Virus record (IMG/VR): IMGVR_UViG_3300017917_003016
Coordinates: 96,001 to 160,000 of that record
Strand: one strand, 5' to 3'
Source of the DNA: a virus
Taxonomy: Duplodnaviria; Caudoviricetes
Length of the DNA stretch: 64,000 bases
Shown here piece after piece: positions 29,958 through 61,039 of the stretch; positions within the stretch are counted from its first letter, which is position 1, and the number at the start of each line of letters is the position of its first letter. Under the pieces are notes generated by a model that had not been told where the DNA came from, ran no database searches, and worked only from the letters and a program-made list of their open reading frames with translations. Both the position numbers and the translations under genes were made by a program.

Positions 29958-30045
29958 GGAAGTGCGGCTCAGATGGCGGATGGGCACCGGACTGTAAATT
30001 CGGCACACAGAAACGCAGTAGGTTCGAATCCTACCACTTCCACCA
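29958..30045 (+). tRNA. tRNA-Tyr(GTA)
   Basis: Cloverleaf with long variable arm, encoded CCA. Confidence 0.93.
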
Positions 30046-30048
30046 TTC

Positions 30049-30190
30049 AATGACGACCGGCTAAATCTGCGGAGTGCAGGCCCAGGTTGGGGGTGATACG
30101 CCACTCAAGTTCCAACCCGTCATTTATCAAAAAGGGAGAGCGTTGAGCATGAAACCATGCCTGCTCTTAAACGACAATGACTGCGTCCCT
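30049..30190 (+). ncRNA. two small structured RNA modules between tRNA-Tyr and tRNA-Glu
   Basis: aatgacg/cgtcatt closing helix with inner ggttggg/tccaacc and possible gagtg/cactc pseudoknot; aggga/tccct closing helix with gcatg-aaac-catgc hairpin. Confidence 0.5.
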
Positions 30191-30200
30191 AGAGATTCCC

Positions 30201-30278
30201 GTCCCTATAGATTACGATTGGTTAGATCATCACCCTTTCAAGGTGAAGAACCGGGATCGTCGCCCGGTAGGGACGCCA
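30201..30278 (+). tRNA. tRNA-Glu(TTC)
   Basis: Cloverleaf, CCA; atypical T-loop. Confidence 0.9.
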
Positions 30279-30284
30279 GTTTTA

Positions 30285-30373
30285 GGAGAGTTGCCAGAGT
30301 GGTAATGGAGCGGATTGCTAATCCGTCGTTTGCGAAAGCAGGCGCATTGGTTCGAATCCAATACTCTCCGCCA
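30285..30373 (+). tRNA. tRNA-Ser(GCT)
   Basis: Long variable arm, G73, CCA. Confidence 0.95.
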
Positions 30374-30378
30374 AGTAT

Positions 30379-30455
30379 GGTCTGTTAGAATAGTGGCCTA
30401 ATTCGCCTGCCTGTCACGCAGGAGATCAGGGGTTCAAATCCCCTACAGACCGCCA
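30379..30455 (+). tRNA. tRNA-Asp(GTC)
   Basis: Cloverleaf, CCA. Confidence 0.95.
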
Positions 30456-30457
30456 TT

Positions 30458-30532
30458 TGCCGCGTAGCTCAGAGGAAGAGCAATCGGTTGATAACCGATA
30501 GGTCGACATTTCAAAACTGTCCGTGGCAACCA
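30458..30532 (+). tRNA. tRNA-Ile(GAT)
   Basis: Cloverleaf, CCA; one T-stem mismatch. Confidence 0.88.
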
Positions 30533-30537
30533 ATTAT

Positions 30538-30611
30538 TGGGGTATGGTGAAATGGTATCACACAGGATTTTGATTCCCGTGTTCTTGGTTCGATTCCAAG
30601 TACCCCTGCCA
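30538..30611 (+). tRNA. tRNA-Gln(TTG)
   Basis: Cloverleaf, CCA. Confidence 0.92.
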
Positions 30612-30612
30612 A

Positions 30613-30688
30613 GGTAATGTAGCACAGCGGGAAGTGCAGCGTCTTCATATGTCGCAGGTCGTTGGTTCAAATCCAACCATTACCACCA
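30613..30688 (+). tRNA. tRNA-Met(CAT), probably elongator
   Basis: Cloverleaf, paired 1:72, CCA. Confidence 0.85.
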
Positions 30689-30692
30689 AAAT

Positions 30693-30769
30693 ACGCCTGT
30701 AGTTCAGCGGAATAGAACACTGGTCTACGAAACCAGAGGTCGGTGGTTTGAATCCACCCAGGTGTGCCA
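30693..30769 (+). tRNA. tRNA-Arg(ACG)
   Basis: Cloverleaf, CCA. Confidence 0.93.
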
Positions 30770-30835
30770 AATTTACTGATCAGTAAATTTACAGTTAAAA
30801 CTAACTGAATTAGTAAAATTATTACTGATCAGTAA
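30769..30835. repeat. array of AT-rich palindromes with ACTGATCAGT core
   Basis: 22-bp perfect palindrome 30769-90, degenerate copy about 30801-16, 14-bp perfect palindrome 30822-35. Confidence 0.85.
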
Positions 30836-30842
30836 ATTTTAT

Positions 30843-30917
30843 GGTGTCTGTAGTGTAGCGGCAACACTCAAGATTGTGGATCTTGCATCATGAGTTCGAA
30901 CCTCATCGGGCACCCCA
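30843..30917 (+). tRNA. tRNA-His(GTG)
   Basis: G-1:C73, CCA. Confidence 0.93.
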
Positions 30918-30918
30918 C

Positions 30919-30947
30919 TTGACAATTGGTCAGTTTACAGTTATAAT
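30919..30947 (+). promoter_or_regulatory. sigma70-type promoter
   Basis: TTGACA-17-TATAAT. Confidence 0.88.
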
Positions 30948-30970
30948 TATGAAAATTTAAAGGAGGCAAC

Positions 30971-31528
30971 ATGCCAGCAACATTTTTGGTCAGCGACACG
31001 CATTTTGGTCACGCTGGCGTCTGCCGATTCCTGCGTGAGGATGGTACTAAACTCAGACCATTTGACACGCCCGAAGACATGGACGAATTCATGATCAAGG
31101 CGTGGAACGACCGTGTTAAGCCTAACGACAAGGTCTACCATCTCGGTGATGTGGTCATTAACCGCAAGTCTCTCAAAACTCTTGCTCGCCTTAACGGTGA
31201 CAAAGTGCTTATCAAGGGTAACCACGATATCTTTGCACTAGAGGATTATACCACCTACTTTAGAGATATTCGCGGTTATCACGTCATGAATGGCATGATC
31301 CTTAGTCATATCCCTGTGCATGCAGACAGTCTTGCACGTTTTGGTACCAACATTCACGGACATCTGCACGCCAATCGTGTCATGAAAGATGGAGTTATTG
31401 ATCCAAGATACCACTGTGTTTGTGTAGAGCACACCGACTATGCTCCTATACTGTTTGAGGATGTAATCAAACGTATTCTAGAAGAAGGCGGCAGTGTGGG
31501 TTTTAGGAACGGCAACGGTCCACTTTAA
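30971..31528 (+). CDS. calcineurin-like phosphoesterase
   Basis: SDTHFGH, HLGDV, KGNHD, LSHIP, HGHLH. Confidence 0.9.
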   Translation: MPATFLVSDTHFGHAGVCRFLREDGTKLRPFDTPEDMDEFMIKAWNDRVKPNDKVYHLGDVVINRKSLKTLARLNGDKVLIKGNHDIFALEDYTTYFRDIRGYHVMNGMILSHIPVHADSLARFGTNIHGHLHANRVMKDGVIDPRYHCVCVEHTDYAPILFEDVIKRILEEGGSVGFRNGNGPL

Positions 31529-32541
31529 TAGGCCAGCAGATTTCTTGCTGGCCTAATCCAATCAGTCATTAGAAAATGCTGCTTGTTGTGATCTAATACA
31601 GGTTGCAACCTTTCAATTATTTGTCTGGGGTTCTGTTGACAAAGATATTCAACCTGCTGCCACGCTAGTTTGAATCGTGTTTGATCATTGGCATGGTCAT
31701 CATAACTTTCATCGATTACACTACTAAAAGTTTGAAAACCTAATTTTTTTAGATTTCTTAGATAGTGTTGACCTGCAAACACAACAAAAGGTCTTAATGC
31801 TACTATAGGTTTTGCAACTTTTTCTGTAAAATGACTGTATTCGTTTGTGGATATGGTCTCGGCAACAACGGAGTAGTAACTGTTGTTATAGATATCAGTG
31901 GGTATCATAGCACTGACGCGAGCGTCCTCATCGTCAATTTTAAATTGATTAGAAGTAAGAGGTACTCCAAGTTTTGAAGGATGATATTTTGAATCCCATA
32001 GACCATTTTCTATGCGGTATTTAAAATAAGAAAAAATAATTTGATCTTTATACGGACTAGTCTGATATAACTTTTCAATAAAATCTCTATGAGTTTTTGT
32101 TGAGCCCAAAAGACAATCAAACATTTTTGGTCTATCATAGGTATGATTTAGTTGCCCTAGTAATTTTTTAGCCCAGTTAGCAGTAGCATAGTAATTAACA
32201 TGATCAATGAACCAACAGACTAAAGGTAAACATCTAGCATGATTTAGATTAAAATTGAGAATTGTATCACTAAAAAAAATTATTTTTTCGTAGTCATTGG
32301 CTTTGATAAAATCAGCATAGTTAGTTGATTCGTTATGCACTGCTTCATTGTTATAGACAAAAAGTCTGGTACACCTGTTCAACAAATGGTTGATGATCTC
32401 AGACTGCTGATCATAGTCATAGGTATAAAAATCGATGGCAATCGTATCGGCTGATCTATCAAATTTGATAAAATCATCAGGTTCAATAAGATGATGTTCT
32501 TGTTGATTAAACTGCCAAAAAAAGGGTCCGGAATAAATCAT
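31525..32541 (-). CDS. glycosyltransferase-like phage family protein (paralog 2 of 3)
   Basis: YSVVAETI...FTEKVAKPI...GFQTFSSVIDESYD. Confidence 0.7.
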   Translation of the reverse strand: MIYSGPFFWQFNQQEHHLIEPDDFIKFDRSADTIAIDFYTYDYDQQSEIINHLLNRCTRLFVYNNEAVHNESTNYADFIKANDYEKIIFFSDTILNFNLNHARCLPLVCWFIDHVNYYATANWAKKLLGQLNHTYDRPKMFDCLLGSTKTHRDFIEKLYQTSPYKDQIIFSYFKYRIENGLWDSKYHPSKLGVPLTSNQFKIDDEDARVSAMIPTDIYNNSYYSVVAETISTNEYSHFTEKVAKPIVALRPFVVFAGQHYLRNLKKLGFQTFSSVIDESYDDHANDQTRFKLAWQQVEYLCQQNPRQIIERLQPVLDHNKQHFLMTDWIRPARNLLAY

Positions 32542-32592
32542 ACAGAATATTTAGCAAGTGTCAAGAGTCTCTATCCCTTATAAATATTTGAA

Positions 32593-33099
32593 ATGAAAAG
32601 ATACTTTTGGATCATAGCATTTTTATTGTCTCCTGCTAGAGCATCTGATACTATTGATTTTGATAAATTATCGCGAGAGACATTTGATCTATATCCTATA
32701 AAAGTAGAATATAGTCAACCTCCTTTAGAACGCATTTCTCCACAGGAACTACATCAATGGATCTGCGGAGACAAATGTCCTGAAGGCATTGAAGTCAAAG
32801 GAGTGTACTTCCAAGGAACAATTTATTTGATTGATAATATTGTTACCTGGGACGACTGGGAAAAAAGTCTTTATGTACATGAGGTCGTGCACTATATACA
32901 GGATTTGATAGGCAAAACTACCAGATCTGGTAGAGAACCATGTACAAATCATCTGGCATTAGAACTAGAAGCCTATAGCCTACAAAGTCAATGGCTCAGG
33001 CAACACGGAAAATTTATCAAACATTCAGACATAGTTGATCTAGCCAGGGCAAGTGCAGCCAGAGGCTGCAAAAAAACAGTTGACACTGTAAAAAAGTGA
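32593..33099 (+). CDS. exported HExxH protein (paralog of 35553-36047)
   Basis: Signal peptide; YVHEVVHYIQ ... ELEAY..Q. Confidence 0.65.
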   Translation: MKRYFWIIAFLLSPARASDTIDFDKLSRETFDLYPIKVEYSQPPLERISPQELHQWICGDKCPEGIEVKGVYFQGTIYLIDNIVTWDDWEKSLYVHEVVHYIQDLIGKTTRSGREPCTNHLALELEAYSLQSQWLRQHGKFIKHSDIVDLARASAARGCKKTVDTVKK

Positions 33100-33108
33100 C
33101 TATATAAT
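33080..33108 (+). promoter_or_regulatory. sigma70-type promoter for the second tRNA block
   Basis: TTGACA-17-TATAAT. Confidence 0.88.
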
Positions 33109-33153
33109 AGATGTATTGGTTAGACACGTTCATTAAAAATTTAGCAGTTCAGT

Positions 33154-33228
33154 CGCGGGATAGTGAAATGGCATCACGGTGGTCTCATAAGCCACAGTTC
33201 CTAGTTCGAATCTAGGTCTCCGCAACCA
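33154..33228 (+). tRNA. tRNA-Met(CAT), initiator-like
   Basis: C1:A72 mismatch; lacks the 3GC anticodon-stem pairs; CCA. Confidence 0.8.
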
Positions 33229-33234
33229 GATTTT

Positions 33235-33309
33235 GCCGCGTTAGCACAGTGGTAGTGCAACGGTTTTGTAAACCGTAGGTCGTCTGTTCGAATCAGACAC
33301 GCGGCACCA
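33235..33309 (+). tRNA. tRNA-Thr(TGT)
   Basis: Cloverleaf, CCA. Confidence 0.95.
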
Positions 33310-33316
33310 GATTATT

Positions 33317-33399
33317 GCCCGGGTGGTGGAATTGGTAGACACGCTGGTCTTAGAAGCCAGTGCTTCGGCGTAAGTGTTCGAGTCTCTTCTTGGGCACCA
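33317..33399 (+). tRNA. tRNA-Leu(TAG)
   Basis: Long variable arm, CCA. Confidence 0.92.
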
Positions 33400-33406
33400 A
33401 AGTTTT

Positions 33407-33480
33407 GCGGCGTTCGTAAAATGGTATTACCTTAGCCTTCCAAGCTAAAGTCGCGAGTTCGATTCTCGCACGCCGCTCCA
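33407..33480 (+). tRNA. tRNA-Gly(TCC)
   Basis: Cloverleaf, U73, CCA. Confidence 0.95.
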
Positions 33481-33484
33481 AGTT

Positions 33485-33575
33485 TCACATAAGTCAGATG
33501 AAGATGATGCCGTTGAAAGCGTGTGAAGATAGTGGACGATAAAACTTTAATTATAGCAGTACACTGGCTTATGTG
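33485..33575 (+). ncRNA. putative small RNA closed by a 13-bp stem
   Basis: tcacataagtcag/ctggcttatgtga; shares ACATAAG/CTTATGT with the 29312-29393 stem. Confidence 0.5.
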
Positions 33576-33579
33576 ATTT

Positions 33580-33655
33580 GGGGGTGTAGCTCAGTTGGGA
33601 GAGCGCCAGCTTTGCAAGCTGGATGTCGCAAGTTCGATCCTTGTCACCTCCACCA
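33580..33655 (+). tRNA. tRNA-Ala(TGC)
   Basis: G3:U70, CCA. Confidence 0.96.
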
Positions 33656-33662
33656 AATTTCT

Positions 33663-33738
33663 GCGGGCGTAACTCAGTTGGGAGAGTGCAACCTTGCCAA
33701 GGTTGATGTCGAGAGTTCGAACCTCTTCGCCCGCTCCA
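33663..33738 (+). tRNA. tRNA-Gly(GCC)
   Basis: Cloverleaf, CCA. Confidence 0.96.
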
Positions 33739-33745
33739 TGTTTTT

Positions 33746-33821
33746 GGAAGGTTAGCTCAGTTGGTAGAGCATCGCCCTTACAAGGCGAGGGTCACTGGTT
33801 CGAGCCCAGTACCTTCCACCA
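33746..33821 (+). tRNA. tRNA-Val(TAC)
   Basis: Cloverleaf, CCA. Confidence 0.96.
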
Positions 33822-33826
33822 AACAC

Positions 33827-34036
33827 TACCGTGTCCTGACGGTTTATCAGGAGGTTGTGAGTATAGGTTGGCCAAACCTTCCAGAAACTCTCAGGTGCTC
33901 TGTCCACCTTAAGGCTACAGCGTAGACGTAGGCCCTGCGATAACGGCCCGCAGGTGTGATGTTCCTCTAGAGTGAACATACGGACAGGGTAACAACTCAG
34001 TTAGGGGCCATGGTGGTGCAGGTAGCCTAACACTGA
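33827..34036 (+). ncRNA. approximately 210-nt structured RNA between tRNA-Val and tRNA-Asn
   Basis: taccgtgtcc/ggacagggta closing helix, tcctga-cggttta-tcagga hairpin, 3' tcag-ttagg/cctaa-ctga domain; no ORF with an RBS. Confidence 0.55.
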
Positions 34037-34040
34037 CACT

Positions 34041-34117
34041 TCCCCGATAGCTCAGTTGGTAGTAGCAATGGACTGTTAATCCATGTGTCCCTGGTTCGAG
34101 CCCAGGTCGGGGAGCCA
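34041..34117 (+). tRNA. tRNA-Asn(GTT)
   Basis: Cloverleaf, CCA. Confidence 0.95.
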
Positions 34118-34122
34118 TTATT

Positions 34123-34199
34123 CGGACATTAGCGCAGCCCGGTAGCGCATCTGCTTTGGGAGCAGAGGGTCGTAGGTTCGAATCCTACATGTCCGACCA
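34123..34199 (+). tRNA. tRNA-Pro(TGG)
   Basis: Cloverleaf, CCA. Confidence 0.96.
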
Positions 34200-34224
34200 T
34201 TTTTAATTTAACTAAAGGTAATGT

Positions 34225-34695
34225 ATGCAAAAACTTGACTTTGACGAAGTGCGGACGTTTATTCAGCAGCAAAGCCCAGAAACCAAAATCTACATTGGTG
34301 GCGATAGTCGTAGATTTCGTAAGGACAATACCTGGCATGCTGAATACACCCTTGCTGTTGTAGTTCATATCGATGGCAAGCATGGCTGCAAGATTTTTGG
34401 TGAGTCTTGCATTGAGCGTGATTTTGATCAACGTCGAGACCGCCCTAGCATGCGTCTTATGAATGAAGTCTACAAGATTAGTGAACTTTACCTTAAGTTA
34501 CACGAAGTTTTAGAAGATCGTGATGTTGAAGTACACCTAGATATTAACCCCAATGAAATGTACGGCAGTAGTTGTGTGGTACAACAGGCAGTGGGTTATA
34601 TTCGTGGTGTATGTAATGTTGTACCAATGGTTAAGCCTCGTGCGTTTGCTGCCAGTTACGCCGCAGACAGACTCAAGGAGGTATTGGCAGCATAA
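34225..34695 (+). CDS. RNase H-like YkuK-family protein
   Basis: KIYIGGDS, RLMNEVYK, EVHLDIN, KP.AFAASYAAD. Confidence 0.8.
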   Translation: MQKLDFDEVRTFIQQQSPETKIYIGGDSRRFRKDNTWHAEYTLAVVVHIDGKHGCKIFGESCIERDFDQRRDRPSMRLMNEVYKISELYLKLHEVLEDRDVEVHLDINPNEMYGSSCVVQQAVGYIRGVCNVVPMVKPRAFAASYAADRLKEVLAA

Positions 34696-34703
34696 AAGTT
34701 TAC

Positions 34704-34779
34704 GGGACGGTAGCTCAGTTGGTAGAGCAGCGGACTTTTAATCCGTTGGTCGCGAGTTCGAACCTCGCTCGTCCTACCA
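34704..34779 (+). tRNA. tRNA-Lys(TTT)
   Basis: Cloverleaf, CCA. Confidence 0.96.
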
Positions 34780-34799
34780 ATATTAAAGGAGATCACAAA

Positions 34800-34982
34800 A
34801 TGAAAACGGTGGTTTTTAAAAATCGAAGATCAAATGAAAAATTTGTCTGCGACAACGTCCGTGATGTCCGTGTGATTGAAGGAGTTGAATATCTACAGGT
34901 ACATCGTCCGGACAATCCTAGAAACTTTTTGATGCGTAAAGATGCACTAGAAAGGGTAGAATCATCCCGCTTGCCGCGTTAG
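34800..34982 (+). CDS. hypothetical protein (60 aa)
   Basis: AAGGAG RBS, ATG 34800. Confidence 0.7.
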   Translation: MKTVVFKNRRSNEKFVCDNVRDVRVIEGVEYLQVHRPDNPRNFLMRKDALERVESSRLPR

Positions 34983-35324
34983 GAAGTTGGCTCGCATGCT
35001 CTTTGGTTTGAAATATTCACGCACAACTTCTTTGACAATATCTATGCTGAATTCTTTGCAACTAAAAACGTCTAGATATAGATCGCCGGTTGAATCTATA
35101 AAGTGTGCAACAATACTGGATGTAACTATGATCTGCACAGCAGTGAATCCTGCTTTGTCGGGTTGATCTCCTGCTGTGTATTCTATCCAAGGTGTGCCAA
35201 TTGGCTCCATGTCAATTCTTTGCACTAGTTCTTCGATAAAGTTTTTAACATTCCATTTTTCCATGATCAGTGCACGGTTGCAGTCATGACAGTCTAATGT
35301 TAGATGATAACCCCAAAAACTCAT
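34962..35324 (-). CDS. speD: S-adenosylmethionine decarboxylase proenzyme
   Basis: WGYHL.LDC; G.TAVQII.TSSI.AH (putative autocleavage Ser); YLDVFSCK.F. Confidence 0.85.
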   Translation of the reverse strand: MSFWGYHLTLDCHDCNRALIMEKWNVKNFIEELVQRIDMEPIGTPWIEYTAGDQPDKAGFTAVQIIVTSSIVAHFIDSTGDLYLDVFSCKEFSIDIVKEVVREYFKPKSMRANFLTRQAG

Positions 35325-35395
35325 TGATGTCTCCTTGACATAGAATTCGTAAGAAAGTATAGTTATTTATTGTGCAGAGCAAAAAGTTAGATATA

Positions 35396-35469
35396 CCCGG
35401 TGTAGTTTAATGGTAGAACCGCAGCCTCCAAATCTGCATGTGGGAGTTCGATTCTCTCCACCGGGCCCA
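35396..35469 (+). tRNA. tRNA-Trp(CCA)
   Basis: Cloverleaf, CCA; unusual C73 and one anticodon-stem mismatch. Confidence 0.8.
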
Positions 35470-35474
35470 TTTAT

Positions 35475-35552
35475 GTAGAGGTGGCAGAGTGGCCCAATGC
35501 AAGGGATTGCAAATCCCTAAAACCGTGAGTTCGAATCTCACCCTCTACTCCA
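35475..35552 (+). tRNA. tRNA-Cys(GCA)
   Basis: U73, CCA. Confidence 0.93.
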
Positions 35553-36047
35553 TTACCTGCACTGTTCTATTAGATTGGGCACTGCAAACCCTGTACTACC
35601 GTGTTTTTTCAAAAAATTACTCTGTGCGGTATAGGCATGCTGTTCGCTCTTAGCCCAGTGTAGGCAGTCTGGTTCATTTTTAAACAAATTGTTTTTTACC
35701 TGAGCCCAGTGTACTAATTCATGAAATACCACACTGGCAGTGAATAGGTTAATCTGCAGCAATGCTGGACTGATCAGTATCTCACCAGTCTCGTCGTCTG
35801 TGATAGCAGCCACATGACAGTCATGATTGACATCTTTGCAGTAGGCTGCTTCTATGGCCTGCCTGCTGGCTAGATAAACTTTGGGTTGTTCTTTAGGCAA
35901 AGGTAATCTGGTTATTTCAGTTATTTCTGTCATCAAAGGTCTGATCAGATTCTCATACATAATTGGCGGAATTGGAGTCTTAGAAATTTCTTGTGCATGG
36001 CTCCGGGCTGTGACCAGCAGCGCCAGGAGGAATATAATTTTTTTCAT
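35553..36047 (-). CDS. exported HExxH protein (paralog of 32593-33099)
   Basis: Signal peptide; VFHELVHWAQ ... EQHAY.AQ. Confidence 0.65.
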   Translation of the reverse strand: MKKIIFLLALLVTARSHAQEISKTPIPPIMYENLIRPLMTEITEITRLPLPKEQPKVYLASRQAIEAAYCKDVNHDCHVAAITDDETGEILISPALLQINLFTASVVFHELVHWAQVKNNLFKNEPDCLHWAKSEQHAYTAQSNFLKKHGSTGFAVPNLIEQCR

Positions 36048-36078
36048 TTTAATTCCAAGTATCTACATACTTATGCTA

Positions 36079-36155
36079 GCCCCCGTAGCTCAGTGGACCA
36101 GAGCGGTGCGCTTCGAACGCACGGGTCGGGAGTTCGAATCTCTCCGGGGGCTCCA
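36079..36155 (+). tRNA. tRNA-Arg(TCG)
   Basis: Cloverleaf, CCA. Confidence 0.93.
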
Positions 36156-36214
36156 AATAAATAACTGTTGACAGCGGTTTAATGTATTTGATTTGATTTT
36201 TCATAAATAAAATT

Positions 36215-36850
36215 ATGCATACTTGTTTATACTGTCAAAAAAATTTTACTAACCTGGGTGGTTTGGGGGCGCATCACCCTTATTGTAAATCTAACCCAGA
36301 AAGAAAACAGCGTACAAAATCTCCCAATGCACATCGTAAAAAAGGTTCAATACCCTGGAACAAAGGGTTATCTATAGAAACTGATCAAAGAATAAAACCA
36401 AGATTAGAACTACAAGGTAAAAGATTTGGTGCTTCGTTAAACGGTCACAGTGAAGAGACTAAGAAAAAACTATCAGAAATCGCCAAAGAACGTAAATTAG
36501 GTGGATATGTAAAAGGCTCCGGAAGAGGTAAAAAAGGCTGGTACAAAGGATTTTTTTGCGACAGTAGTTGGGAACTTGCCTATGTAATTTATTGTTTAGA
36601 ACACGGTATAGATATTAAAAGAAATACAGAAATCAGAGAATACATATGGAAAGGGCAAGTTAAAAAATATATTCCTGATTTTAATGTACAAGGTGTAATA
36701 ACTGAAATTAAGGGTTACAAGACAGAACAATGGCTAGCAAAATTAAAAGCAAATATTGATGTAAAAGTCTTGTATGAAAAAGATTTAGAGTATATAATAG
36801 AGTATGTTAGTAGCAAATACGGTAAAGATTTTGTAAAGTTGTACGAGTAA
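36215..36850 (+). mobile_element. free-standing homing-endonuclease-like gene (Zn finger, NUMOD3-like motif, PD-(D/E)XK/TnsA-like domain)
   Basis: CLYC...H...C; HSEETKKKLSE; DSSWELAY...YIPDF...EIKGY. Confidence 0.7.
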
Positions 36851-36855
36851 TGTTT

Positions 36856-36946
36856 GGAGGGGCAAACCGATTGGTGACGGTACCTGTCTTGAAAACAGTT
36901 GAGCGTTAATAGCGCCTTGGGGGTTCGACTCCGCCTCCCTCCGCCA
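36856..36946 (+). tRNA. tRNA-Ser(TGA)
   Basis: Long variable arm, CCA. Confidence 0.92.
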
Positions 36947-36961
36947 ATTTTATGAGGCTGT

Positions 36962-37582
36962 ATGATTAAACTGCTAGGAAAACTACCGCGAGAAATTTGG
37001 GTAGCCTGCTCAGGTGGTGTCGATAGTCTTGCTGCTGTAGATTTTCTCAAAAACAATCATCGCGTTAGTGTGGTTTTTGTGCATCATGGCACAGAAGCCA
37101 GCGACCAAGGCATGATCAAAGTCTGCGAATATGCAGACACACACGCACTGCCGGTAGTGGTAAAATACATCGATACCCATCGGCCGCGCCAGCAAAGTCA
37201 GGAAGAATACTGGCGTCGAGAACGCTATGAGTTTTTTGATGAATTGCACAACGAATGGCCGTTGGTCACTGCACATCATCTAGATGACTGTGTGGAAACT
37301 TATGTATGGAGTATGTGTCATGGCCGCGGCAAGGTAATTCCCCATCGTCGTGGTCGCGTGATTAGGCCGTTTCTTCTTAACTCTAAACAGGAATTGATTG
37401 ATTGGGCTGAACTGCATGGCCTGTCCTGGCATGATGATGCCAGCAATCACGATATTAAGTATACACGCAATCTTGTACGACACGAAGTACTTCCACAGGT
37501 TCTACGGGTCAACCCCGGCATCGCACAAGTTGTGCGCAGGATTGTTAAAGATAATTTTGATCTTGACAGGCATCAATACTGA
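36962..37582 (+). CDS. tilS: tRNA(Ile)-lysidine synthetase, catalytic domain only
   Basis: ACSGGVDS, R..RY, TAHHLDD..ET, RPFL, D.SN....YTRN..RH. Confidence 0.9.
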   Translation: MIKLLGKLPREIWVACSGGVDSLAAVDFLKNNHRVSVVFVHHGTEASDQGMIKVCEYADTHALPVVVKYIDTHRPRQQSQEEYWRRERYEFFDELHNEWPLVTAHHLDDCVETYVWSMCHGRGKVIPHRRGRVIRPFLLNSKQELIDWAELHGLSWHDDASNHDIKYTRNLVRHEVLPQVLRVNPGIAQVVRRIVKDNFDLDRHQY

Positions 37583-37591
37583 ATATATACT
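37563..37591 (+). promoter_or_regulatory. sigma70-type promoter overlapping the tilS 3' end
   Basis: TTGACA-17-TATACT. Confidence 0.8.
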
Positions 37592-37607
37592 ATGTAATGA
37601 AAGTTAC

Positions 37608-37684
<77 letters not shown>

Positions 37685-37704
37685 ATATATTACTAGGTTT
37701 AATC

Positions 37705-37914
37705 ATGATAGAAAAAGAGTTGATTGATCTAATGCTAAGTATTAAGCATGAATTAATTGCTATCAGAACTGATCTAACATTGATTAATCATGATGTAATT
37801 AAAATTAACGAACGTATAGATACGTTGACAACTTTGGCTATGCAACCTCAAGAAAGTATTGGAATCGCTCCAAACACACCGCATCCAAGTTATCTTCCTC
37901 CAGAGGTAATGTAG
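37705..37914 (+). CDS. hypothetical coiled-coil protein
   Basis: ATG 37705, downstream of the tRNA. Confidence 0.6.
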   Translation: MIEKELIDLMLSIKHELIAIRTDLTLINHDVIKINERIDTLTTLAMQPQESIGIAPNTPHPSYLPPEVM

Positions 37915-37947
37915 TCAAAACTTAAATTATTTTATAAGGAAACTAAA

Positions 37948-38277
37948 ATGTTAACAATGCTTTCTGTAGTAGTGGTACTGCTGGTAGCAGGGTATATTAT
38001 TAATACACGACTGCAAAAGTCGCAGACTAAGACCAGCCAACCTACTCCCACTGAACCCGTCAAAGTTACTGTCAGTGAAGAAGTTGTCACAGGGTTGACT
38101 GATCAAAAGATTGATGAAGTTGCTGCGGTAGTCGAGGGTGTTGAAGCAGTAGTGCCAGAAACTAAGGTAGAGGTTGTAGTCGAAACTACTGCCAAGAAGC
38201 CTGCAGCACGTAAGTCTTCAGCACGTAAGCCCGCTGCTAAGAAGGCACCTGCTAAGAAGCCTGCTGCTAAGAAGTAA
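37948..38277 (+). CDS. membrane-anchored protein with Lys/Ala/Pro histone-like tail
   Basis: N-terminal TM helix; C-terminal KKPAARK repeats; AAGGA RBS. Confidence 0.7.
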   Translation: MLTMLSVVVVLLVAGYIINTRLQKSQTKTSQPTPTEPVKVTVSEEVVTGLTDQKIDEVAAVVEGVEAVVPETKVEVVVETTAKKPAARKSSARKPAAKKAPAKKPAAKK

Positions 38278-38286
38278 AGTTTAATT

Positions 38287-38374
38287 GCCCGGGTGGTGAA
38301 ATAGGTAGACACAACGGACTTAAAATCCGTCGCCCTAAACAGGCGTACCGGTTCGATTCCGGTCCCGGGCACCA
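38287..38374 (+). tRNA. tRNA-Leu(TAA)
   Basis: Long variable arm, CCA. Confidence 0.95.
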
Positions 38375-38382
38375 ACAATACT

Positions 38383-38586
38383 ATGGACGTTAATCAACTT
38401 ATTAATCGTGTAAAAAATCTCCAGTACTGGGAAGTGACAATACCAGTACCACCGTTGGTAAAGTTTTCTGGGCGTGTGCCTTTTACTGTAAAAATAGTTG
38501 ATGACCGTGCTGTATGTAAGGTTTTAGCAGTTGACATAGTTGAAGCAGAACGCAGGGTTTTAGAATACTTTAATTCACAAGTTTAA
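38383..38586 (+). CDS. hypothetical protein
   Basis: ORF track. Confidence 0.6.
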   Translation: MDVNQLINRVKNLQYWEVTIPVPPLVKFSGRVPFTVKIVDDRAVCKVLAVDIVEAERRVLEYFNSQV

Positions 38587-38587
38587 A

Positions 38588-38662
38588 CTGCTCGTAGCCT
38601 AATGGAAAGGCAACACTCTTCTAAAGTGTCTTATGGGGGTTCGAGTCCCTCCGGGCAGGCCA
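38588..38662 (+). tRNA. tRNA-Arg(TCT)
   Basis: Cloverleaf, CCA. Confidence 0.9.
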
Positions 38663-38668
38663 AGTTAA

Positions 38669-38759
38669 GGAGAGTTGGCCGAGCGGTCGATGGCACCGGT
38701 CTACTAAACCGGCATACAGTTAACCTGTATCCAGGGTTCGAATCCCTGACTCTCCGCCA
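38669..38759 (+). tRNA. tRNA-Ser body with anticodon ACT
   Basis: GGAGAGT/ACTCTCC acceptor identical to Ser(GCT), G73, long variable arm; loop CT-ACT-AA between CCGGT/ACCGG. Confidence 0.88.
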
Positions 38760-51947: not shown

Positions 51948-52538
51948 ATGCCTAATCTAGTACCAATGGTTCTTGAACGCACCAGTCAAGGTGAACGCAG
52001 TTATGATTTGTATTCAAGACTGCTCAAAGACCGCATTGTGATTCTTGACACTGACGTCAACGAACACTCAGCAAGTCTTATTGTTGCTCAATTGCTGTTC
52101 CTTGAAGCAGAAGATGCTGAAAAAGATATTTTGTTCTATATCAACAGTCCAGGGGGTATTATCACTGCTGGTATGAGCATTTATGATACCATGCAGTTTA
52201 TTCGTCCTCAGGTCAGCACCATTGTAATGGGACAGGCCTGCTCAATGGGCAGTTTTCTTGCACAAGCAGGGGCCCCAGGCAAACGTATGATGCTGCCCAA
52301 TGCTCGACACATGATTCACCAACCTAGCGGTGGTGCACGTGGCATGGCTTCAGACATTGAAATTTCCTACAAGGAAATCATGCACTGGAAGCAACGTCTA
52401 ACAGAACTTTATGTAGAGCACAATACCTCAGGTAAAACCTATGAAGATTTTGAGCGGGACATGGATCGTGACACTTTTATGAGTGCACAGGAATCTCTGG
52501 AGTATGGCCTCTGTGACGAAATTATCACTAAACGATAA
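51948..52538 (+). CDS. clpP: ClpP protease subunit
   Basis: [21 protein letters not shown] (Ser), MIHQP (His), RDTFM (Asp). Confidence 0.97.
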
Positions 52539-56813: not shown

Positions 56814-56842
56814 TTGACATACATTGCCATTGCTGTTATAAT
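56814..56842 (+). promoter_or_regulatory. sigma70-type promoter of the tmRNA gene
   Basis: TTGACA-17-TATAAT. Confidence 0.88.
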
Positions 56843-56864
56843 TATTGAACTATTTTTGAAGTAA

Positions 56865-56936
56865 ATAAGAGTATTGCTGTATGAAGTTGATGGAAAGGTG
56901 TTCTGGACGCGGGTTCGACTCCCGCCGACTCCACCA
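56865..56936 (+). ncRNA. ssrA: two-piece tmRNA, acceptor piece (5' boundary approximate)
   Basis: GGAC-GCGGG-TTCGACT-CCCGC-CGACTCC-ACCA T-arm and acceptor strand. Confidence 0.9.
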
Positions 56937-56948
56937 AAAATGCACTGT

Positions 56949-57161
56949 ATGACTGAAGACCAAAGACGTTACGCCTATGAATTGTTTTACCTAGTAAAAG
57001 GCCATGTCAAGTATTTTGACGATGCTGACCTAGAGGCCATAGTCAAAGATTATACTCGGCGTCTGTGGTACAATGAAGAAGCACATTTGTACCGTGAAGG
57101 GTTTGAAGAAGCATATCGTGTGTTTTCGCTGGGGTCGTACAGGTTTCGACAGGGCAAATGA
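56949..57161 (+). CDS. 70-aa ORF within the tmRNA intervening segment
   Basis: Open frame MTEDQRRYAYELFYLVKGH...; protein-like composition; last 10 codons overlap the tmRNA coding piece. Confidence 0.55.
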   Translation: MTEDQRRYAYELFYLVKGHVKYFDDADLEAIVKDYTRRLWYNEEAHLYREGFEEAYRVFSLGSYRFRQGK

Positions 57162-57352
57162 GTACGGATATGGACAGCACGGTAGGCGAAGACCGTAAAT
57201 CTAGCAAAACTTATAGATGCCAACACATCTAAATTTGGTACTGCAAAAGTATCTATGGGCCGCGGCTTCCGCTTCGGTACTCGTAGTGCTGAGGCAGTAG
57301 CAGCCTAAACTCTGCAACCACGGGGTTGGTTAGCCTTGTTACCCAATTAACC
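57131..57352 (+). ncRNA. ssrA: two-piece tmRNA, coding piece; tag ANTSKFGTAKVSMGRGFRFGTRSAEAVAA (57219-57308)
   Basis: GGGGTCG pairs with CGACTCC including G3:U70; GTTTCGAC D-loop analogue; resume GCC after ATAGAT; tag ends in AA-stop. Confidence 0.9.
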
Positions 57353-57377
57353 AAAGCCCACTTCGGTGGGCTTTTTT
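57353..57377 (+). terminator. intrinsic terminator after the tmRNA
   Basis: aaagcccac-ttcg-gtgggctttttt. Confidence 0.92.
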
Positions 57378-57421
57378 ATCTTGATTATAGACAAAATAAA
57401 TATCTAAAAGGATGAGAAAGC

Positions 57422-59078: not shown

Positions 59079-59100
59079 TATTTGCTTACTAAAAGGAGTA
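59079..59100 (+). promoter_or_regulatory. ROSE-like RNA thermometer hairpin occluding the groES SD
   Basis: UAUUUGCUU-ACUAA-AAGGAGUA with bulged G; preceded by a second hairpin at 59046-59074. Confidence 0.65.
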
Positions 59101-59105
59101 AAACA

Positions 59106-61039
<1,934 letters not shown>

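Follow-up and report, generated by a model that had tools for sequence, protein, structure and literature searches.

In a two-piece tmRNA gene of a phage (Duplodnaviria; Caudoviricetes), the intervening segment (IVS) between the two pieces holds what the pattern of substitutions among relatives indicates to be a genuine protein gene under strong purifying selection. A survey of other viral tmRNAs showed that the IVS is a general gene slot holding many unrelated small genes, and comparison of relatives showed that the gene studied here has moved repeatedly relative to it. The window, by which we mean the whole stretch of 64,000 nucleotides that was analyzed, covers positions 96,001 to 160,000 of a 201,732-base virus record (IMGVR_UViG_3300017917_003016), and the contig is 56% complete.

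ARAGORN called a permuted tmRNA at 56844-57399, the only one in the window, beside 27 tRNA genes, and Rfam matched RF04321 over 56875-57308 with 119.2 bits against a cut-off of 47. The acceptor piece (T-arm and CCA) precedes the coding piece, as in the permuted two-piece class, and the alanine identity is intact: GGGGUCG pairs with CGACUCC-A-CCA, with a G-U pair in the 7-bp acceptor stem and A as the discriminator. The order acceptor, IVS, coding and the intact tRNA-like domain and tag are the same as in known permuted tmRNAs (RF04321/RF01850; OM43 phage Melnitz, PMC9004378; PMC11915505), genes that aquatic phages commonly carry (PMC9004378; PMC11915505). The window tmRNA is a member of this class except for its coding IVS, which at 194 nt differs from the short, non-coding IVS of bacteria. 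A database paper of 2025 describes IVSs that hold a tRNA-Ala gene or a repeat and mentions no ORF (PMC11915505), and the IVS is not mentioned in the Melnitz paper (PMC9004378). We found no published account of a protein-coding phage tmRNA IVS in the searchable papers, a set outside which some primary papers on two-piece tmRNA fall. The features of the locus are as follows.

56814..56842, plus strand: sigma-70-type promoter-like site, TTGACA-17-TATAAT with extended TG (12/12 consensus match only)
56875..56936, plus strand: tmRNA acceptor piece with T-arm, acceptor 3' strand and CCA at 56934-56936 (ARAGORN, Rfam; 5' end approximate)
56937..57130, plus strand: IVS of 194 nt, between CCA and GGGGTCG (equal length in 5/5 beta-type IVS-borne copies)
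56937..56951, plus strand: 5' arm of the IVS closing helix, holding the start codon 56949-56951 (predicted pairing)
56949..57161, plus strand: 70-codon gene of an all-alpha phage family with FYxVKGH, RLWYNEE and EGFEEAY (homology, model, dN/dS)
57112..57126, plus strand: 3' arm of the IVS closing helix, also coding residues 55-60 (14/15 pairs)
57131..57308, plus strand: tmRNA coding piece to the tag stop, with acceptor 5' strand GGGGTCG from 57131, D-like loop and tag ORF 57219-57308 (ARAGORN, Rfam)
57353..57380, plus strand: intrinsic-terminator-like hairpin, end of the transcription unit (sequence)

Ahead of the tmRNA and the ORF, the one strong promoter-like site in sense orientation was that at 56814-56842, and no other was found between it and the ORF start; the simplest reading is therefore that the two would be co-transcribed on one RNA. 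The tag ORF is unusually long, with 29 codons, an Ala resume codon and the hydrophobic end AVAA (Ala-Ala). The encoded 29 residues are basic, whereas the nearest relatives, L001 and L303, have acidic tags of 12-14 residues, and no other long tag of the survey was similar. This tag may direct tagged proteins differently.

The ORF has two candidate starts, ATG 56940 and ATG 56949, which lie 3 and 12 nt past the CCA and have no Shine-Dalgarno sequence (SD) ahead of them. It fills the whole spacer and ends at TGA 57159-57161, 31 nt into the coding piece, with its last ten residues read from tmRNA sequence. ARAGORN, Rfam and the sequence agree on this layout, which the first-pass annotation of the window had described. 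Of the two starts that it left open, 56949 is the one kept in IVS-borne relatives, where the 56940 codon is ATA, ACA or GTG. We rejected initiation at ATG 56940 or at TTG 56874, neither of which is conserved in those relatives. A 23-codon frame at 56881-56952 crosses the acceptor piece and ends in a TGA that overlaps the ORF start as ATGA; the overlap is also present in L056 and L057 and is absent in L001, and it could reflect translational coupling or be a by-product of RNA conservation.

The protein has 18 homologues at 75-91% identity and belongs to a family of 435 viral loci (158 representatives at 50% identity), whose members have ~60-75 residues and the motifs FYxVKG, RLWYNEE and EGFEEAY. 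The family is widespread among phages and unnamed. The protein is near neutral (12 K/R, 13 D/E), and AlphaFold2 gave an all-alpha model with a mean pLDDT of 84 in which the RNA-derived tail was poorly predicted. Four other beta-type tmRNAs (L001, L056, L057 and L303) also hold the gene in a 194-nt IVS. We computed dN/dS on the IVS loop, with the helix arms left out. Relative to L056, which shares the IVS length and junctions of the window, dN/dS was 0.066 (18 synonymous and 6 non-synonymous differences; Fisher p=5.5e-9), and it was 0.10-0.15 for more distant pairs (0.07-0.15 among beta-type IVS copies overall). The frame of the ORF was free of stops among the relatives while the other two frames held 1-7, and the core had neither an indel nor a stop in any of the 17 IVS copies. 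The conservation and dN/dS check that had been proposed thus bore out the claim of a protein gene in the spacer. The tree did not resolve the beta-type IVS copies into a single clade, so some of their divergence may be older than their entry into the IVS. On the other hand, ten copies from IVSs of alpha-type tmRNAs form a well-supported (starred) clade with a median dN/dS of 0.25, which points to selection after IVS entry. Six marine members of this clade (L041-L043, L045, L051 and L054) have ATA or ATT in place of the family ATG, behind an SD-like motif, and these copies are still under purifying selection.

Searches for a name gave no match in Pfam, PHROGs, PDB sequences, isolated phages or ESM Atlas features. 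The best fold match in the PDB had a Z of 3.9, nothing in BFVD fell under an E of 1.4, and an unnamed viral cluster (75 aa) matched at TM 0.51; such missing sequence and fold matches do not establish a new fold. Our best guess is that the protein is a small helical host-interaction factor.

To place the coding IVS in context, we compared it with 112 distinct viral permuted tmRNAs that were found by RNA motifs alone. Their IVSs had a median length of 94.5 nt, and 31 of them were 135 nt or longer. The first-pass annotation had called bacterial IVSs short and non-coding, and the 116 alphaproteobacterial genes agreed with this: the median was 29.5 nt, and the single IVS over 135 nt (139 nt) had no ORF. 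Among the 31 long viral IVSs, 24 had a sense ORF covering at least 75% of the segment, compared with 3 in antisense and a mean of 1.6 (maximum 5) after shuffling. IVSs of at least 100 nt held 36 such ORFs, which fell into 21 BLAST families; a few of these could collapse into one another, and chance may account for some of the short singletons. These cargo ORFs start 8-45 nt past the CCA, after the 5' helix arm, and often have an SD inside the arm. It is because related phages fill the same spacer with so many unrelated small genes that we regard the IVS as a gene slot. Some phages (L019/L024/L164, L031 and L180) have a member of the window family outside the tmRNA and another ORF (75, 47 and 55 codons, respectively) in the IVS. 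Four beta-type phage tmRNAs (L003, L072, L080 and L134) lack an encoded CCA, and their IVS is nearly absent, with about 4 nt past the place of the CCA.

The ends of the window IVS pair in a closing helix of 14 out of 15 possible pairs. Four relatives retained it despite variation at five pairs, one of which had changed on both sides, a pattern of substitution that shows the helix to be conserved. Folding predicted an unpaired probability of 0.00 for the AUG at 56949 both in the excised IVS and in the full precursor, and a cost of opening it of ~10 kcal/mol as compared to 5 in nascent RNA without the 3' arm. The predicted start accessibility changed in the same direction in 29 of 39 ORF-bearing IVSs. 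The excised spacer had earlier been pictured as a nearly leaderless mRNA. Since its AUG is predicted to be locked in the closing helix and open only in nascent RNA, we would expect a poor message instead. Initiation on nascent RNA may itself be weak because there is no SD.

We examined 84 distinct family members, a sample biased towards IVS copies since the junctions were searched for. The gene was in the IVS in 17, directly upstream of the acceptor piece in 12 and elsewhere in the tmRNA locus in 10; the other 45 had no tmRNA within the fetched flank. The junction pattern in metagenomes gave mostly chance matches and five distinct IVS copies. In further close relatives, the gene was directly before the acceptor piece in 6 out of 7, and a permuted tmRNA was found in 2 of 10 partial contigs that carry the gene, which as fragments are weak evidence. 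Changes of position could be seen directly. In L431 the order is a 68-aa gene, the ORF and the acceptor piece, while in L057 the same 68-aa gene is followed by the acceptor piece and then the ORF. In L058 the ORF is flanked by two decayed copies of the acceptor piece (54 nt at 93% and 28 nt at 89%), which is what a duplication intermediate would look like. On the protein tree, which cannot tell entry from exit, the IVS label changed 4 times, at least 3 of the changes being forced by starred branches. The IVS copies formed one group in 0 of 200 bootstrap trees, and the AU test rejected a single clade (p=0.0026). Both at L058:181-489 and at protein P0019, decayed acceptor sequence beside a free-standing copy reads in frame into the gene. 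Fragments with a tRNA-like T-arm and CCA were noted directly before the gene (L003:1270-1312) and between the gene and the tmRNA (L436:1050-1110).

Taken with the survey, we consider it probable that the IVS is a passenger slot and that one transcript serves first as messenger and then as tmRNA precursor, the gene being read on nascent, uncut RNA before the helix closes. The gene, which is small and conserved in phages, is usually found immediately upstream of the tmRNA; it would have moved into the hairpin loop of the IVS, probably through a local duplication of the acceptor piece and a subsequent deletion. A single transcript would start at or near 56849 and run from the promoter at 56814-56842 to the terminator at 57380. 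During synthesis of some 160 nt the AUG would be exposed, so that a ribosome could load and read the IVS. A round of translation would end normally at 57161, briefly holding the 5' strand of the acceptor stem open. The 14-pair helix would close over the AUG as soon as the 3' arm had been synthesized and was free, and the tRNA-like domain would fold. The IVS would then be removed by tRNA-processing enzymes (PMC11915505) as a largely silent by-product. Any ribosome still in the loop when the cut is made would be left on a non-stop RNA of 60 codons and would be tagged, a leak that may be tolerated. The strong selection on the core implies that intact protein is made by some route.

The first-pass annotation had pointed out that an RNase P-type cut at 57131 would take away the stop codon, and that translation of the uncut precursor would unfold the tRNA-like domain. 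Both points hold on the sequence, with the cut placed from the tRNA-like fold, since a ribosome that finishes the ORF must open the 5' strand of the acceptor stem. It had gone on to suggest a feedback loop coupling tmRNA maturation to a small protein. In a selected loop of this kind, maturation would make the message non-stop, and the 60-residue product would be tagged and degraded for as long as trans-translation operates and would build up on its failure. The 60 codons left by the cut are the whole conserved core, the gene often adjoins the tmRNA, and the phage has a ClpP-like protease. There are also precedents. The smpB-ssrA overlap of Carsonella ruddii is one for which Mao et al. 2009 is reportedly the source. 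The smpB coding sequence ends inside the 5' end of the tmRNA sequence there, and maturation should remove the stop (Hudson, Lau and Williams 2014, PMC4131195). The window resembles it in that the coding sequence runs into tmRNA sequence and should lose its stop on maturation, but in Carsonella it is smpB upstream of a one-piece gene, while here the IVS encloses an unrelated phage gene; a search of the phage contig (56% complete) found no smpB. Likewise, arfA and brfA are repressed by trans-translation through non-stop mRNA (PMC8012679), and their size is similar, with about 70 codons of which about 60 are left on the truncated message. Truncation by RNase III or a terminator is the rule in arfA and brfA, whereas that of the window gene depends on position and is not conserved, most family copies being free-standing with their own stop and L234 having its stop inside the IVS. 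No Pfam, PDB sequence or fold match listed for the near-neutral window protein linked it to ArfA or BrfA, factors that are themselves poorly conserved.

The stop positions in relatives, the check that had been proposed for the loop, gave a divided answer. In 16 of the 17 IVS copies of the window family, from 3 of 4 lineages, the stop was beyond the cut in the coding piece, the exception being L234 at -1. However, the position varied (-1, +13, +31, +34 or +67 relative to the coding piece), the nearest relatives are free-standing with their own stop, and 14 of all 21 cargo families had the stop inside the IVS, where a feedback purpose would lead one to expect it in the coding piece. A simpler cause is probably the junction itself. 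Free-standing relatives end in A-Y-R-x-F and the 3' arm of the IVS reads Y-R-V-F in the ORF frame, so that keeping the C-terminal Y-R-x-F would put out of frame the TGA found in other spacers right ahead of the coding piece. The stops beyond the cut do count against the passenger-slot explanation, and the junction argument covers them by inference only. With the AUG predicted to be locked in the excised IVS, and with 8 of 10 partial contigs that carry the gene showing no permuted tmRNA (weak evidence, being fragments), we regard a selected loop as unlikely; self-tagging looks like a side effect. A wider version makes two-piece tmRNA genes expression cassettes with a built-in sensor, in which a stop placed in the mature tmRNA lets a translation or proteolysis factor accumulate only when trans-translation or maturation lags during infection; we hold this to be decidedly unlikely as well.

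A message could also be the excised IVS itself, stabilized by the helix, outliving the precursor, with a 12-nt leader and with back-up rescue freeing the non-stop ribosomes. Cargo ORFs do fill the IVS end to end from 8-45 nt past the CCA, and most would be complete messages since they stop inside it. The window copy would have no stop on the excised piece, though, its start region is within the closing helix, and the 23S IVS of Coxiella is degraded rapidly once excised, with its ORF apparently untranslated in vivo (PMC4990558), which leaves this reading a slim chance. That Coxiella IVS with its S23p ORF (PMC4990558) is similar in that a segment closed by a helix carries an ORF and is cut out of the precursor of a stable RNA. 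It differs in being one selfish, decaying family, whereas phage tmRNA IVSs hold many unrelated families that are under purifying selection and also occur free-standing; here the host RNA is a tmRNA and the ORF has no Pfam match, so the window gene does not belong to S23p. The same precedent, the missing SD and the several alpha-type IVS copies with only ATA or ATT at the start position might suggest a relic that rearrangement brought into the IVS and that is no longer translated here. The 18 synonymous against 6 non-synonymous differences to L056, the core intact in 17 of 17 copies and the conserved ATG make this very improbable. Equally far-fetched is a tmRNA broken by the insert so that the protein gene alone works. 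The IVS is in the longest class, and the basic 29-codon tag is atypical, the nearest relatives having 12-14 codons. However, the acceptor stem with its G-U pair, the T-arm and the CCA are all intact, columns of the tmRNA hardly vary whereas synonymous sites in the IVS loop are saturated, and the closing helix was kept through its five variable pairs.

Under the passenger-slot explanation, the gene may be likened to a spacer gene between two co-transcribed tRNA genes. T4-like phages have protein genes interspersed in their tRNA clusters, and the likeness lies in small ORFs between a CCA end and the 5' end of the next RNA on a shared precursor. The window differs in that both flanks of the ORF belong to one RNA that pairs across it, with a helix that closes over the start codon. 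The 27 tRNA genes of the window are themselves interleaved with protein genes (29958-38759), including a TilS-like protein, so named from its motifs (36962-37582), and an endonuclease-like gene (36215-36850). The tmRNA has a protein quality-control neighbourhood, with a ClpP-like protease (51948-52538) and GroES/GroEL (59082-61039) encoded no more than 5 kb away.

Two-piece tmRNA IVSs are regarded as disposable and RNA annotation masks them, so that a class of small, conserved genes of phages has been hidden there. Natural pairs, i.e. near-identical genes inside or just outside the IVS and with stops inside or beyond it, make it testable whether non-stop messages made by RNases are regulation or a tolerated accident, a question that Carsonella smpB raises too. 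A transcript that would be an mRNA and then a stable-RNA precursor, with a helix shutting the start codon, would be a compact way to time and cap expression. If the protein is a host-interaction factor, it would thereby gain the strong tmRNA promoter and a capped output.
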